A stretch of DNA of 64,000 bases from Escherichia phage QL01: sequence record NC_028847.1, one strand, 5' to 3'. The notes under the pieces are model-generated. The model was not told where the DNA came from, did not search any database, and was given only the letters and a program-made list of their open reading frames with translations. The position numbers were made by a program, and so were the translations under genes. Positions 29,537 through 35,888 of this stretch are shown here, piece after piece (the first letter of the stretch is position 1; every line of letters begins with the position of its first letter).

Positions 29537-31846
<2,310 letters not shown>

Positions 31847-31875: not shown

Positions 31876-33858
31876 ATGGCTTTATTATCACCGGGCATTG
31901 AGCTCAAAGAAACGTCCGTACAGAGTACTGTCGTTCGTAACGCAACGGGTCGTGCAGCGCTGGTTGGTAAATTCCAGTGGGGCCCTGCTTTCCAGGTAAC
32001 TCAGATTACTAATGAAGTTGAACTGGTCGACTTATTTGGAGGTCCTAATAACGAAGTTGCTGATTACTTCATGTCGGGTATGAACTTCCTCCAGTATGGT
32101 AACGACCTTCGTACTGTTCGTGTTGTTAACCGTGAATTCGCTAAAAACGCGTCTCCGGTAGCGGGTAACGTCCAAACCACTATTACTACTGCAGGTTCTA
32201 ACTATGCGGTAGGCGATAAAATTAATATCAAATATAACCAGACTGTTGTTGAATCTGAAGGTCGTGTGACTTCTGTAGATACGGATGGTAAAATTCTTTC
32301 CGTGTTTATCCCATCAGCAAAAATTATTGCTTATGCACGTTCTTTAAACCAGTATCCGAACCTCGGCCCGGCATGGACTGCTGAAGTAACTTCTGCCTCT
32401 TCAGGTGTTTCTGGTACTATTACCGTTGGTAAAATCGTAACCGATTCCGGTATTCTTTTGACCGAAGCAGAGAACAGTGAAGAAGCTATTACTTCCCTAG
32501 AATTCCAAGCGTCTCTTAAACAGTTTGGTATGCCTGGCGTGGTCGCTCTTTATCCTGGTGAAATTGGCAGCACCTTAGAAGTAGAAATTGTTTCTAAAGC
32601 AGCTTATGATGTCGGTTCTTCTAAAATGCTGGATATTTATCCTGGCGGTGGTACCCGTGCTTCTATTGCCAAGGCAGTATTTAACTACGGCCCACAAACA
32701 GATGACCAATACGCAATTATTGTTCGTCGTGATGGCGCTATCGTAGAATCTGTCGTACTTTCTACCAAAGAAGGTGAAAAAGACGTTTACGGTAATAACA
32801 TTTATCTTGACGACTATTTCGCTAAAGGTACTTCTAACTATATTTTTGCTACCTCTTTGAATTGGCCTAAAGGCTTCAGTGGTATCATCAATCTTATGGG
32901 TGGTGTATCTGCTAACGATCAGGTTACTGCGAGTGATTTGATGCAGGGTTGGGATTTGTTTGCCGACCGTGAAGCACTCCATATTAACCTTTTGATTGCT
33001 GGTGCTGTTGCCGGTGAAGGTGATGAAGTTGCTTCTACCGTCCAGAAACACGTTGTTAGTATTGCTGATGAACGTCAGGATTGCTTGGCATTTATTTCTC
33101 CTCCTAAAGGACTGTTGGTTAACGTTCCATTGACTCGTGCAGTAGATAATCTTATCGACTGGCGTACCGGTGCAGGTACTTTCGATACCAACAACATGAA
33201 CATTAGCACCACTTATGCTGCTATTGATGGTAACTATAAATATCAGTATGACAAATATAATGACGTAAACCGTTGGGTGCCTCTGGCCGCTGATATGGCT
33301 GGTTTGTGTGCACGTACTGATGATGTTTCTCAGCCTTGGATGTCTCCGGCAGGTTATAACCGTGGCCAGATTCTTAACGTTCTGAAATTGGCAATTGAAC
33401 CGCGCCAAGCTCAACGTGACCGCATGTACCAAGAAGCTATTAACCCAGTTGTTGGTTTTGCTGGTGGCGATGGTTTCGTATTGTTTGGTGATAAGACTGC
33501 AACCAAAGTTCCATCTCCGATGGACCACATTAACGTTCGCCGTCTGTTCAACATGCTTAAGAAAAATATCGGTGATGCCTCTAAATATAAACTGTTTGAA
33601 TTGAACGACAACTTCACTCGTTCAAGCTTCCGTATGGAAGTTTCTCAGTACTTAGATGGTATTAAGGCACTTGGTGGGATTTATGAAGGACGCGTGGTTT
33701 GTGATACTACAGTGAACACCCCTGCGGTTATTGACCGTAACGAGTTTATTGCTAATATATACATCAAACCGGCGAGATCGATAAATTATATCACTCTTAA
33801 TTTCGTGGCTACTTCTACCGGTGCAGATTTTGACGAGTTGATTGGACCACTAGTTTAA
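31876..33858 (+). CDS. 18: gp18 tail sheath protein
   Basis: 660 aa, synteny and size (T4 gp18 659 aa). Confidence 0.9.
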   Translation: MALLSPGIELKETSVQSTVVRNATGRAALVGKFQWGPAFQVTQITNEVELVDLFGGPNNEVADYFMSGMNFLQYGNDLRTVRVVNREFAKNASPVAGNVQTTITTAGSNYAVGDKINIKYNQTVVESEGRVTSVDTDGKILSVFIPSAKIIAYARSLNQYPNLGPAWTAEVTSASSGVSGTITVGKIVTDSGILLTEAENSEEAITSLEFQASLKQFGMPGVVALYPGEIGSTLEVEIVSKAAYDVGSSKMLDIYPGGGTRASIAKAVFNYGPQTDDQYAIIVRRDGAIVESVVLSTKEGEKDVYGNNIYLDDYFAKGTSNYIFATSLNWPKGFSGIINLMGGVSANDQVTASDLMQGWDLFADREALHINLLIAGAVAGEGDEVASTVQKHVVSIADERQDCLAFISPPKGLLVNVPLTRAVDNLIDWRTGAGTFDTNNMNISTTYAAIDGNYKYQYDKYNDVNRWVPLAADMAGLCARTDDVSQPWMSPAGYNRGQILNVLKLAIEPRQAQRDRMYQEAINPVVGFAGGDGFVLFGDKTATKVPSPMDHINVRRLFNMLKKNIGDASKYKLFELNDNFTRSSFRMEVSQYLDGIKALGGIYEGRVVCDTTVNTPAVIDRNEFIANIYIKPARSINYITLNFVATSTGADFDELIGPLV

Positions 33859-33886
33859 GTTTACTTGCTCTAAGCTTTATGGTATA

Positions 33887-34543
33887 ATGCGCGTATACAC
33901 AATACGCGCAAGGATTTCTAAAGTGATTATTACTAAATTTGTTGATGTAAAAATAAATACTAACAATTACAGTTATTTCTTAGACTTAGGGTATGAGTTG
34001 GAACCTCTAGGAGCACCGAAGCATGGGCATAAGTGCCAAACTATTCGAGCAAAAGTTTCTGATTTAAAGGATGGTTCTAATAAAGAAGTTCAATGTATCT
34101 GCGATAAATGTGGCACAGAATTCAAACAAAGGATTGCTAGAAATACCGATGTATGTTATCCTTGTAGGCGTCATGAAGCTCTTATAGGTAACACCAACGG
34201 TAAAGCTAATAAAGGTAAAACTCTACCTCATATGCAAGGTGAAAACCATCCAAGATGGAACCCTAATAAATCTGAATACTTTGCTTATGCATCAAAGGTT
34301 AGAGCTGTTACTTATGCTTGTAAAGACGAGTGGATGGCTTGGGAAAATGCAGATAAAATAGGGTTATGTGGAGTTGAAGGTGCTTACCAATTAGACCATA
34401 AGGTTTCAGTAGCTTATGGATTCTATAACCATATCCCAGCAGAGATAATTGGACAATTATCAAATTTAGAAATAATCACTTGGGAATCCAATAGAGCTAA
34501 AAGTAAGTCTAGTTCAATAGACTTATGGGACTTACTATCCTAA
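33887..34543 (+). CDS. HNH homing endonuclease (start possibly GTG at 33923)
   Basis: C-terminal motif YQLDHKVSVAYGF...NLEIITWESNRAKS plus CxxC...CxxC zinc-finger; inserted between gp18 and gp19. Confidence 0.65.
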   Translation: MRVYTIRARISKVIITKFVDVKINTNNYSYFLDLGYELEPLGAPKHGHKCQTIRAKVSDLKDGSNKEVQCICDKCGTEFKQRIARNTDVCYPCRRHEALIGNTNGKANKGKTLPHMQGENHPRWNPNKSEYFAYASKVRAVTYACKDEWMAWENADKIGLCGVEGAYQLDHKVSVAYGFYNHIPAEIIGQLSNLEIITWESNRAKSKSSSIDLWDLLS

Positions 34544-34687
34544 ATAAATTATATCTCCTTAATCTATTATCCCAGGCTGTAATATAAAGAACCTAAAACC
34601 ATTATACCATGAGTTTGGTTACAGCGTACATCACGCAGAATTGCGCCTGGGGTTGATTATTCTTTAGGAATATGATTTATCAACTGT

Positions 34688-34695
34688 TATAAATA
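34688..34695 (+). promoter_or_regulatory. late promoter TATAAATA for gp19
   Basis: exact TATAAATA about 52 nt upstream of gp19 ATG. Confidence 0.55.
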
Positions 34696-34747
34696 AATTA
34701 ATCAGAACGTTCCTGGTGTGTCCAGGAACTGACTTAAGAGGCATCCC

Positions 34748-35239
34748 ATGGAGTTGACAGATATCACTCGTGCATTTGAGTCAGGTGACTTTGCACGCCC
34801 TAACCTTTTCGAAGTGGAAATTCCATTTCTTGGTAAAAACTTTAGCTTTAAATGTAAAGCAGCACCAATGCCTGCTGGCATTGTAGAAAAAGTACCGGTT
34901 GGCTACATGAACCGTAAAATTAACGTAGCTGGTGACCGTACGTTTGATGATTGGACAATTACCATTTATAACGATGATGCACATGACACCCGTCAAGCAA
35001 TTGTCGATTGGCAGAATCTCTGTCACGGTATGACCAATGAAATTACCGGTGCAGCACCTGCAGAATATAAGAAACAAGCAGTAGTTCGCCAGTTCCATCG
35101 TGACGGCAAGACTGTGACCAAAGAAGTTACAATTTACGGCTTATGGCCTACTAACGTTGGTGAAGTCCAGATGGACTGGGACTCGAATAACGAGGTAGAA
35201 ACATTTGAAAGCACATTTGCTATTGACTGGTGGGAATAA
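34748..35239 (+). CDS. 19: gp19 tail tube protein
   Basis: 163 aa, same size as T4 gp19. Confidence 0.9.
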   Translation: MELTDITRAFESGDFARPNLFEVEIPFLGKNFSFKCKAAPMPAGIVEKVPVGYMNRKINVAGDRTFDDWTITIYNDDAHDTRQAIVDWQNLCHGMTNEITGAAPAEYKKQAVVRQFHRDGKTVTKEVTIYGLWPTNVGEVQMDWDSNNEVETFESTFAIDWWE

Positions 35240-35268
35240 GTTTTTACTTTTATAGCAAATTATGATAG

Positions 35269-35276
35269 TATAAATA
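35269..35276 (+). promoter_or_regulatory. late promoter TATAAATA upstream of GIY-YIG endonuclease gene
   Basis: exact TATAAATA about 30 nt upstream of ATG at 35307. Confidence 0.5.
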
Positions 35277-35306
35277 CATTCAAACAATGAAGTCAAGGAG
35301 TTTAGA

Positions 35307-35888
35307 ATGTATTGTACTTACTTAACCATATACACGGGGTCTAAACTACCCCGTCGTTATATTGGCTCAACATACGTTGAAAGGATTCTCAAAGAAGGAT
35401 ATAATGGTTCTGTATTATCCCAAGCATATAAAAAGATTTGGAATCTAGAACGTAAAGAAAATCCGCACCTTTTCAAAACCAGAATTTTATCTTTATTTGA
35501 AACCGATAAAGAAGCTCGTATAGCTGAGAAAGAGCTTCAAATAAAGTATAATGTAGTTAAATCTAAAAACTATATAAATATGTCATTAGCTCAGCCTGAC
35601 GGGTTCTTTGGAATGTCTCGTAAAGGGATTCCAATGAGTGAACATGCCAAACAGCTACAAAGAGATTGTAGGTTAGGTAAAAAGAGGCCTGAACATTCTA
35701 AAGCTCTAAAAGGACGTAAGCGACCAGACCAAGCCAAAGCTATGTCTGGTGAAGGTAATCCGATGTTTGGTAAAGAACATCCGGCTAAAGGCAAAAAGAT
35801 TAATCAGCCAAGGATGATTTGCCCTATCTGTGGTGTTGAATCAACTCGTTCGGCTATAACACGTTATCACAAACATGAAAATGAATGA
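35307..35888 (+). CDS. GIY-YIG homing endonuclease (Seg-like)
   Basis: N-terminal YLTIYTGSKLPRRYIGST GIY-YIG motif; repeated NUMOD3-like K/R-rich motifs; inserted between gp19 and gp20. Confidence 0.75.
   Translation: MYCTYLTIYTGSKLPRRYIGSTYVERILKEGYNGSVLSQAYKKIWNLERKENPHLFKTRILSLFETDKEARIAEKELQIKYNVVKSKNYINMSLAQPDGFFGMSRKGIPMSEHAKQLQRDCRLGKKRPEHSKALKGRKRPDQAKAMSGEGNPMFGKEHPAKGKKINQPRMICPICGVESTRSAITRYHKHENE

Follow-up and report, generated by a model that had tools for sequence, protein, structure and literature searches.

A putative homing endonuclease cassette behind the tail sheath gene of a T4-like coliphage, with a predicted promoter overlapping a conserved hairpin

Escherichia phage QL01, a T4-like coliphage of the genus Dhakavirus, carries a cassette of the T6 ORF19.1 family between its tail sheath (gp18) and tail tube (gp19) genes, in which a predicted sigma-70 promoter overlaps a hairpin lying directly before the ribosome-binding site (RBS) of a putative homing endonuclease gene. 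From this architecture we infer a function: with a probability of roughly 55%, the hairpin of this mobile cassette acts as an insulator at the sheath/endonuclease boundary, by which transcripts are told apart according to their origin. The analysis covered a 64,000-nucleotide stretch of the phage sequence (NC_028847.1), here called the window; the features of the locus are given below in window coordinates.

30008-31843, gp17
31876-33858, + strand, gp18 tail sheath gene, ending in the stop codon TAA (33856-33858), which bounds the insertion on the left
about 33859-34559 (about 701 bp), + strand, inserted cassette: promoter, hairpin, Shine-Dalgarno (SD) sequence, endonuclease ORF and a short tail
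33860-33865, + strand, predicted −35 element TTTACT (GTTTAC from 33859), directly after the gp18 stop codon
33880-33888, + strand, predicted extended −10 element TGg TATAAT (TATAAT at 33883-33888)
33888-33910, + strand, hairpin TGCGCGTAT-acaca-ATACGCGCA, 9 bp, −12.6 kcal/mol
33894-33897 (about A33895), + strand, predicted transcription start, placed by geometry 7 nt after the −10 box
33910-33914, + strand, SD sequence AAGGA, 8 nt before GTG 33923
33923-34543, + strand, endonuclease ORF, 206 aa, GTG start, T6 ORF19.1 family (phrog_5104)
34100-34165, + strand, zinc-finger region CxxC...CxxC, treble-clef-like (C60, C63, C78, C81)
34394-34501, + strand, predicted His-Me (HNH-type, H-N-N) core (D158-H159, N181, N190, K193)
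34571-34651, + strand, native gp18-gp19 spacer structure, a long stem CCCAGGC...GCCTGGG followed by a T-rich run
34688-34695, + strand, gp19 late promoter TATAAATA
34709-34729, + strand, gp19 leader hairpin GTTCCTGG/CCAGGAAC
34748-35239, gp19 tail tube gene
35307-35888, GIY-YIG seg-like ORF
from 35946, gp20

The first-pass annotation had reported a 218-aa open frame at 33887-34543 between the sheath and tube genes, and both the frame and its placement were confirmed. It had also proposed a comparison with insert-free gp18-gp19 junctions, which located the insertion exactly: about 701 bp are intercalated precisely after the gp18 stop codon, as seen in alignment with the insert-free phage IME08 and in the pair formed by T4 (empty site) and T6 (occupied site, the insert again directly following the gp18 stop codon). 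In IME08, ...GGACCTTTAGTATAA is joined directly to TCTATTATCCCAGG, the gp18 stop running into the latter (junction sequence ...GGACCTTTAGTATAATCTATTATCCC...), and the alignment identifies TAA 34560-34562 of the window as the counterpart of the ancestral gp18 stop codon. The best database matches are 96% identical across gp18-gp19, and of the 220 matching records just 4 reached a query coverage of 80% or more. In the gp18 and gp19 flanks, the top insert-free Dhakavirus relatives show 92-98% identity, with the middle missing; most close Dhakavirus relatives are without the cassette, and gp18 adjoins gp19 there. Since the gene lies between gp18 and gp19 at every locus inspected and yet is absent from most of these close relatives, the comparison marks segment 33859-34559 as a mobile cassette.

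The native gp18-gp19 spacer has been displaced by the cassette, and now lies 700 nt farther downstream. It is nearly invariant among relatives and strongly structured (minimum free energy −39 kcal/mol, z −3.9); an Rfam scan of 33700-35400, which includes it, gave no meaningful match. The window keeps this spacer as T6 does; downstream of ORF19.1, T6 still has the native hairpin known from T4, GGCCTG-tttcgg-CAGGCC, and with it the late promoter of gp19. Judged from these alignments, the cassette brings its own hairpin and the native one is retained downstream, in T6 and in the window alike. The leader hairpin of gp19 sits 13 nt downstream of the late promoter and 6 nt before the gp19 SD sequence. 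Because gp19 has this late promoter and leader hairpin of its own, its expression should be independent of readthrough across the cassette.

The protein belongs to a widespread family. The phrog_5104 profile matches it over its full length (residues 1-205, E 5e-87), it is 44% identical to the T6 ORF19.1 protein (E about 1e-46), and a homologue is present in 246 phage records. Loci were collected by tblastn against phage records and by look-ups of exact proteins, and those inspected came from eight named genera (Dhakavirus, Gaprivervirus, Karamvirus, Jiaodavirus, Gelderlandvirus, Tequatrovirus and two genera of Acinetobacter phages), from unclassified phages of Serratia, Erwinia, Shewanella and Pectobacterium, and from metagenomes. 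The homologues are 28-99% identical (only 36-45% for the proteins on metagenomic contigs), and all of the approximately 30 loci inspected lie between the sheath and tube genes, the gene orientation being inverted in one. A search of viral contigs for related loci returned three weak partial loci only. A literature search for ORF19.1/gp19.1 yielded nothing relevant, its results being dominated by Candida gene names. Patchy presence at one fixed site is the hallmark of free-standing homing endonuclease genes, and in its distribution the family behaves as such genes do; its nuclease and homing activities are putative.

The paired CxxC motifs and the C-terminal H-N-N motif pointed out by the first-pass annotation are present, and they are conserved among 38 homologues. 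Numbered from the GTG start, C60, C63, C78 and C81 are nearly invariant, and D158, H159, N181 and N190 are invariant, as are L182 and K193. Weak matches to the treble-clef model DUF4379 were found in 15 of the 38 members. In the predicted structure (pLDDT 90), D158-H159 end the strand 155-159, N181 stands at the next strand (182-186) and N190 and K193 fall in the helix 187-193; the predicted catalytic module is C-terminal, with two short helices inserted between its two strands. The isolated C-terminal domain matched only Cas9 and endonuclease I. Among the 38 members, eight match the endonuclease VII phrog (E 3e-8), two match HNH_4 (E 1e-3) and several match HNH phrogs. A Pfam scan of the window protein gave no HNH match and only weak zinc-finger matches, none of 52 homologues carries a precomputed Pfam domain, and a Foldseek search of the PDB found no match. 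A sequence profile search of the PDB with the full family returned only weak zinc-finger matches, to the mitoribosomal protein mS66. The strong leucine-rich-repeat matches that the C-terminal domain gave in the PDB profile search were rejected as spurious, a coincidence of the motif P-E-I-G-x-L-x-N-L-x-I. On these sequence patterns and the structural model, the product is a putative homing endonuclease, free-standing, with a zinc finger and a His-Me (HNH-type) nuclease domain.

The family comparison also fixes the start of translation. An alternative to the annotated ATG (33887) had been suggested at GTG 33923, with AAGGA 8 nt upstream, and this choice is borne out by the family profile, by the annotation of relatives and by the lack of conservation in the extension. 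Position 1 of the phrog_5104 profile is the residue encoded by GTG 33923, the annotations of T6 and UGJNEcP3 begin at the same residue, and the T6 record already carries the note 'likely begin by GTG codon'. The 12 codons that a start at ATG 33887 would add show no conservation; database N-terminal extensions are wholly different between members (MRVYTIRARISK, MRARTPGAHYKDFQ, MGLRPLFSRKQ), and conservation begins at M/V-I-I (MII) and continues from there. Most loci have GTG-ATT-AT at the start, behind AAGGA, GGAG or GAGGA at the same place. Translation is therefore placed, by comparison across the family, at GTG 33923. Many relatives have this ATG too, since a −10 box TATAAT followed by G creates it: in the window, its A and T are the last two bases of the −10 box and its G is the first G of the hairpin stem.

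That −10 box is part of a predicted sigma-70 promoter of the T4 early type, overlooked by the first-pass annotation, which reads TTTAC-N17 (including TGn)-TATAAT at 33860-33888. Early promoters of T4 are of the −35/TGn/−10 type, as described in PMC2988021. Ten distinct promoter-type cassettes were compared without gaps, anchored on the −10 box. The pattern TAA(stop)-G-TTTACa-N14-TGn-TAtAAT is kept in nine of them, with a fixed distance from TTTAC to the −10 box, and the spacer and the downstream sequence are variable; TGn is found in eight and TAtAAT in all ten. Across the 64 kb of the window, the + strand has no strong sigma-70 match other than the cassette promoter; GTTTAC-N18-TATAAT occurs as well at 2503-2474 on the minus strand. 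In DNA as AT-rich as this, 10-of-12 promoter matches are no more frequent than chance predicts (8 found, 8.1 expected); what argues for the promoter is the conservation of position, spacing and TGn. Promoter activity and a start at about 33895 are predicted from this conservation and from geometry, and the predicted start falls in the last bases of the 5' arm of the hairpin.

Two other promoter assignments were considered and set aside. With its TTTAC −35 element and TGn, the −10 sequence TATAATGC is of the sigma-70 type and not late; read as a late promoter, it has three mismatches to TATAAATA. A middle promoter is a minor possibility: the MotA-box-like TTGCTCTA at 33865-33872 is only 10 bp from the −10 box, a spacing that is usually 11-13 bp in T4, and it is not kept in other lineages. 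The passage of PMC2988021 on the MotA box gives its spacing as 13 bp.

The hairpin shares its first base with the end of the −10 box and its last paired base with the SD sequence (33910, the first A of AAGGA), and it stands 30 nt after the gp18 stop codon. The first-pass annotation had described an 8-bp hairpin with ATG 33887 lying inside it. The hairpin itself stands, with 9 bp, but the ATG is not enclosed: only T33888 and G33889 overlap the structure, and the codons after the ATG run through the stem. The 21-nt hairpin core has z = −3.4, and 3 of 200 shuffled sequences folded as well. Perfect hairpins of at least 8 bp are frequent in the window, with 34 entries (about 25 distinct) where 8.4 would be expected; at least five G-C pairs are present in about 12 distinct ones, where the expectation is 0.8. 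Chance thus does not account for the hairpin, although hairpins of this class are common in the phage.

The reading given in the first-pass annotation had been made to depend on conservation of the hairpin. As a structure, the hairpin is conserved at 21 of 24 distinct family loci, on the evidence of folding locus by locus with shuffled controls and of a base rate within the window. At these 21 loci a hairpin of −10.9 to −24.5 kcal/mol ends 3-19 nt before the start codon, distances that were scored with outer helices included (12-19 nt for the compact stems); the three exceptions have no spacer or are in inverted orientation. Within the window, 3 of 62 gene-like ORFs have an equally stable hairpin in the same position. 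An alignment of ten promoter-type leaders with MAFFT and RNAalifold gave no consensus structure, the variable loop lengths putting the 3' arms out of register. What is kept is the placement. In all ten promoter-type cassettes the 5' arm reaches from within the final 1-7 nt of the −10 box to about +2. The 3' arm runs up to the SD sequence in nine of them; in 92A1 it stops 9 nt short. At least eight different stem sequences, unrelated or partly compensated, occupy this place, for example GCGCGTAT, GCACGTATC, ATCGCACGTAC, AATTGCACATA, CAATCGGCTACA, AATGGCTC and TATAATGxGTGC. In the Acinetobacter phages Melin and Acj61, the late promoter TATAAATA is nested instead at the junction of hairpin arm and loop. 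Promoterless cassettes (T6, RB10, S16, POP12 and several metagenomic ones) have a hairpin with a UUCG or GAAA tetraloop between the gp18 stop codon and the SD sequence, ending 2-9 nt before the latter. Compared across these loci, hairpin 33888-33910 emerges as a conserved structural part of the cassette.

Because the predicted start lies inside the 5' arm, RNA made from the cassette promoter would be without the hairpin and readthrough RNA would carry it. RNA polymerase starting at about 33895 would produce a 28-nt leader that is unable to form the hairpin and is predicted to be unstructured (fold of 33895-33960), and the abundant late readthrough RNA coming from the sheath gene would fold it. 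The hairpin would in this way distinguish transcripts by origin, most likely as an insulator at the boundary between sheath and endonuclease genes. On readthrough RNA it may provide the sheath message with a protective 3' hairpin, a substitute for the native one pushed 700 nt downstream, and it may perhaps reduce the output of endonuclease from that RNA. In that case, the pre-replicative promoter carried by the cassette and the weak GTG start would determine the level of endonuclease.

The first-pass annotation had proposed translational control through a hairpin placed before the RBS, and the folding calculations do not bear this out. The calculated energy needed to open the region from the SD sequence to +12 is 2.1 kcal/mol for readthrough RNA against 3.1 kcal/mol for promoter RNA, so that the SD sequence and start codon are equally open with and without the hairpin, which pairs only the first A of AAGGA and leaves the rest of the SD sequence and the start codon unpaired. 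Direct occlusion of translation by the hairpin is not supported. An indirect brake may still be imagined, in which the hairpin, by abutting the SD sequence, removes the standby site or sterically hinders the 30S platform and so represses the endonuclease at least on readthrough RNA. The stem does end 0 nt from the SD sequence in nine of ten promoter-type sequences, and once at least 4 open nt are required upstream of it, the opening cost in readthrough RNA rises from about 3 to about 14 kcal/mol (for −17 to +12, that is, from 17 nt upstream of the start, 13.9 kcal/mol against 3.1 kcal/mol in promoter RNA). In PKO111 there is further pairing, between a UCCU upstream and AGGA within the SD sequence, structured standby sites can change translation more than 100-fold (PMC3936740), and PMC2988022 describes other T4 endonuclease genes as regulated by RBS hairpins. 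Under the same standby model, however, a long upstream single strand can compensate for a hairpin abutting the SD sequence (PMC3936740), and the readthrough RNA has such a long distal single strand. Moreover, a comparable hairpin precedes the SD sequence of gp19, a strongly expressed major structural gene, by 6 nt, the promoterless cassettes leave 2-9 nt between hairpin and SD sequence, and the analogous hairpin of seg43(25) is described in the relevant passage of PMC2988022 with no effect assigned to it. With the RBS open, standby compensation possible and a similar hairpin at gp19, the translational-control reading is weak, and we consider such a brake unlikely. As regards damping of output more generally, the calculations give no reason for lower translation on readthrough RNA.

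Other roles for the hairpin are less probable still. Its location 30 nt downstream of the gp18 stop would suit a terminator or attenuator of the sheath operon, overlapping the promoter for compactness only; in L027 a 13-bp stem is followed by UUUUCUUUU, in S16 GGGCC-UUCG-GGCCC is followed by UUU, and T4 mobE and segF carry terminators near their 5' ends, according to PMC2988022. In the window the stem is G+C-rich but only 9 bp long with a 5-nt loop, and the U-tract of an intrinsic terminator is absent directly after it, AGGAUUUCU standing there instead. The promoter-type relatives have no U-tract after the stem either, a terminator scan did not list the site, and lineages with unrelated stems all hold the 5' arm strictly at promoter positions −7 to +2, which points to more than compaction; termination is accordingly a poor candidate. 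A hairpin stabilising the 5' end of the endonuclease mRNA, as the leader hairpin 13 nt downstream of the gp19 late promoter probably does for gp19, is a very improbable alternative. In promoterless cassettes, processing of the RNA could place the hairpin close to a 5' end. Here, however, the first stem base is also the last base of the −10 box, transcripts from a sigma-70 start 6-8 nt farther on must lack the 5' arm, and there is no alternative −10 box far enough upstream. Least probable of all, to the point of being hardly credible, is that the inverted repeat is a DNA operator bound by a dimeric repressor or by the endonuclease itself. The palindrome overlaps the promoter from −7 to +16, and I-TevI represses its own promoter through an operator (PMC2988022); nevertheless, the arm sequences are wholly different between cassettes whose proteins are 60-70% identical, loops of 3 to 8 nt do not keep the spacing of half-sites, and promoterless cassettes retain the hairpin with the RNA-stabilising tetraloops UUCG and GAAA.

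The layout of the cassette has close precedents. T6 ORF19.1 shares with the window the protein family, the site after the gp18 stop codon, the GTG start and an upstream hairpin. The T6-type cassette, however, has no promoter, and its hairpin is GGGGC-UUCG-GCCCC with a tetraloop, ending 7 nt before the SD sequence, whereas in the window a sigma-70 promoter overlaps a different hairpin that abuts the SD sequence. The N-terminal halves of the proteins likewise fall into two sub-types, one as in T6 and one as in the window, of which phage UP19 is a mosaic. For I-TevI, I-TevII, I-TevIII, T4 segB and Aeh1 mobE, a promoter nested in a hairpin is an established arrangement, set out in the Edgell review (PMC2988022). 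In these systems, as in the window, a stable hairpin stands upstream of an endonuclease ORF within a host transcription unit, and RNA from the nested promoter is without the 5' arm while readthrough RNA folds, which in the window is a matter of geometry only. According to the same review, the hairpin there sequesters the RBS, the nested promoter is late and translation is restricted to late times (PMC2988022); in the window, by contrast, the RBS is open and the nested promoter is of the sigma-70 early type. The review adds that promoters specific to T4 endonuclease genes belong to the middle or late class, and that none is early (PMC2988022). The Acinetobacter phage members of the ORF19.1 family have a nested late promoter, like I-TevI, segB and mobE. 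In these variants the readthrough and nested-promoter transcripts would both be late, which speaks against timing as the general purpose of the design.

The endonuclease gene seg43(25) of Aeromonas phage 25 is also free-standing and has a very stable hairpin directly upstream of its RBS that does not sequester it (PMC2988022, in the passage on that gene). It differs in encoding a GIY-YIG (segD-like) enzyme at another locus, and that passage mentions no overlapping promoter. The T4 Mob proteins and other phage HNH endonucleases (MobA-E, I-HmuI, I-TevIII) resemble the window protein as free-standing or intron-borne His-Me nucleases of T4-like phages, found sporadically between conserved genes. 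The window protein nevertheless has no detectable sequence match to MobA-E, I-HmuI or I-TevIII and no match to a Pfam HNH model, and it is set apart from them by its C-terminal catalytic module with the H-N-N signature and two short helices between the strands. In sum, this is a long-known, little-characterised family that carries a variant of the known I-TevI/segB/mobE regulatory layout.

A broader proposal, which we offer tentatively and at well under even odds, is that the hairpin and the promoter lying within its 5' arm together form a portable insulator module that sorts transcripts by origin and not by time, leaves the RBS unsequestered, and was assembled independently with sigma-70/TGn promoters in enterobacterial phages and with TATAAATA in Acinetobacter phages. 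One possible route would be that the hairpin directs 3'-end formation, or RNase cleavage in the spacer between SD sequence and start codon, on readthrough RNA. If this proposal is true, ORF19.1 would be the first homing endonuclease family of the T4 group expressed from an early-type promoter.

For annotation, the ATG-extended database models (MRVYTIRARISK... and the like) can be corrected as artefacts of a −10 box followed by G. A family whose members are listed as 'hypothetical protein', in one instance as 'type II restriction endonuclease', can be redescribed as a predicted zinc-finger His-Me nuclease tied to one genomic site in T4-like phages. The hairpin here cannot act by the textbook route of RBS sequestration, and its many forms are ready-made compensatory variants for testing boundary hairpins; the same question of what such a hairpin does applies to seg43(25). 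As a natural series, with at least eight stems, two promoter classes, and members with and without a promoter, these cassettes bear on how selfish endonuclease genes fit harmlessly into the operons of their hosts.

Two different endonuclease cassettes flank the tail tube gene gp19, since the cassette of the ORF19.1 family (putative HNH-type homing endonucleases) lies on one side and a seg-like gene on the other. The elements located around gp19 in the window were as follows:

34688-34695: late promoter of gp19, TATAAATA, within the gp19 leader (34688-34747)
34709-34729: 8-bp hairpin GTTCCTGG/CCAGGAAC in the same leader, after the late promoter and 6 nt before the Shine-Dalgarno (SD) sequence
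35269-35276: TATAAATA belonging to the seg-like gene itself, upstream of its ORF
35307-35888: putative GIY-YIG/seg-like homing endonuclease gene between gp19 and gp20 (phrog_314, E 1e-29)
35334-35354: terminator-like hairpin ACGGGGT...ACCCCGT, within the first 16 codons of the seg-like ORF

Matches of the seg-like ORF to SegE_GIY-YIG and NUMOD3 were both weak; the gene has no counterpart in phages UGJNEcP3 and IME08, and Bp7 has one. Its terminator-like hairpin inside the 5′ end of the reading frame is the same feature as reported for T4 mobE and segF. The gp19 leader hairpin, being part of the transcript, probably stabilises the 5′ end.

The native gp18-gp19 spacer (34566-34660) is nearly invariant across Dhakaviruses, and its conservation exceeds that of the flanking coding DNA. 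Its fold (MFE -39 kcal/mol, z -3.9) is a long stem, formed by CCCAGGC (34571-34577) and GCCTGGG (34645-34651), with a T-rich run after it. The spacer had no match in Rfam and may serve as a terminator or as a structured RNA element.

Variants of the ORF19.1 family were located in other phages:

L002 (phage Bp7), 3560-4340: distant relative, 33% identity
L013 (Melin) and L014 (Acj61), Acinetobacter phages, 1150-1200 in each: late promoter TATAAATA in a hairpin before an ORF19.1-family gene
L035 (Escherichia phage UP19), 2184-2853: mosaic ORF19.1

The Bp7 relative is inserted at the opposite end of the spacer, immediately 5′ of gp19, where it takes the place of the late promoter and leader hairpin of gp19. 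At this site a hairpin (GTCGCAGG/CCTGCGAC) is followed by TATAAATA and then, only 5 nt on, by the ATG; no SD is visible ahead of this ATG, and the mRNA would be nearly leaderless. In Melin and Acj61, TATAAATA straddles the junction of 5′ arm and loop in a hairpin of at least 12 bp (GGCTCTCTATA...TATAGAGAGCC), the classical I-TevI-type arrangement.

Elsewhere in the window, too, a promoter lies within sequence that could fold into a hairpin:

2503-2474, minus strand: early-type promoter GTTTAC-N18-TATAAT

An inverted repeat (GAGGAC agggtataat GTCCTC) holds the -10 box in its loop. The promoter precedes, by about 45 nt, a minus-strand ORF that starts at 2429.

Residues 173-192 of the window's ORF19.1 protein (34440-34500; P-A-E-I-I-G-Q-L-S-N-L-E-I-I-T-W-E-S-N) resemble the leucine-rich-repeat consensus. 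Profile searches against PDB accordingly returned strong leucine-rich-repeat hits (E 6e-11), which we rejected as spurious.

Many ORF19.1-family gene models, deposited or predicted, carry 10-14 additional, non-homologous N-terminal residues (database proteins P0001, P0002, P0005, P0012, P0014, P0027, and P0037), because gene callers picked either the ATG formed by TATAAT plus G or an ATG inside the hairpin. In one group of Klebsiella phage records the gene is entered as a 'type II restriction endonuclease', and the deposited annotation of UP19 places the CDS start far downstream. The UP19 gene shares the promoter/hairpin/SD cassette and the C-terminal nuclease half with the window, whereas the ~100 residues at its N-terminus belong to the T6 sub-type (VIISKFVTVYPRNNCKRW...). 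This mosaic suggests that variants of the ORF19.1 family have recombined within the DNA-binding half.
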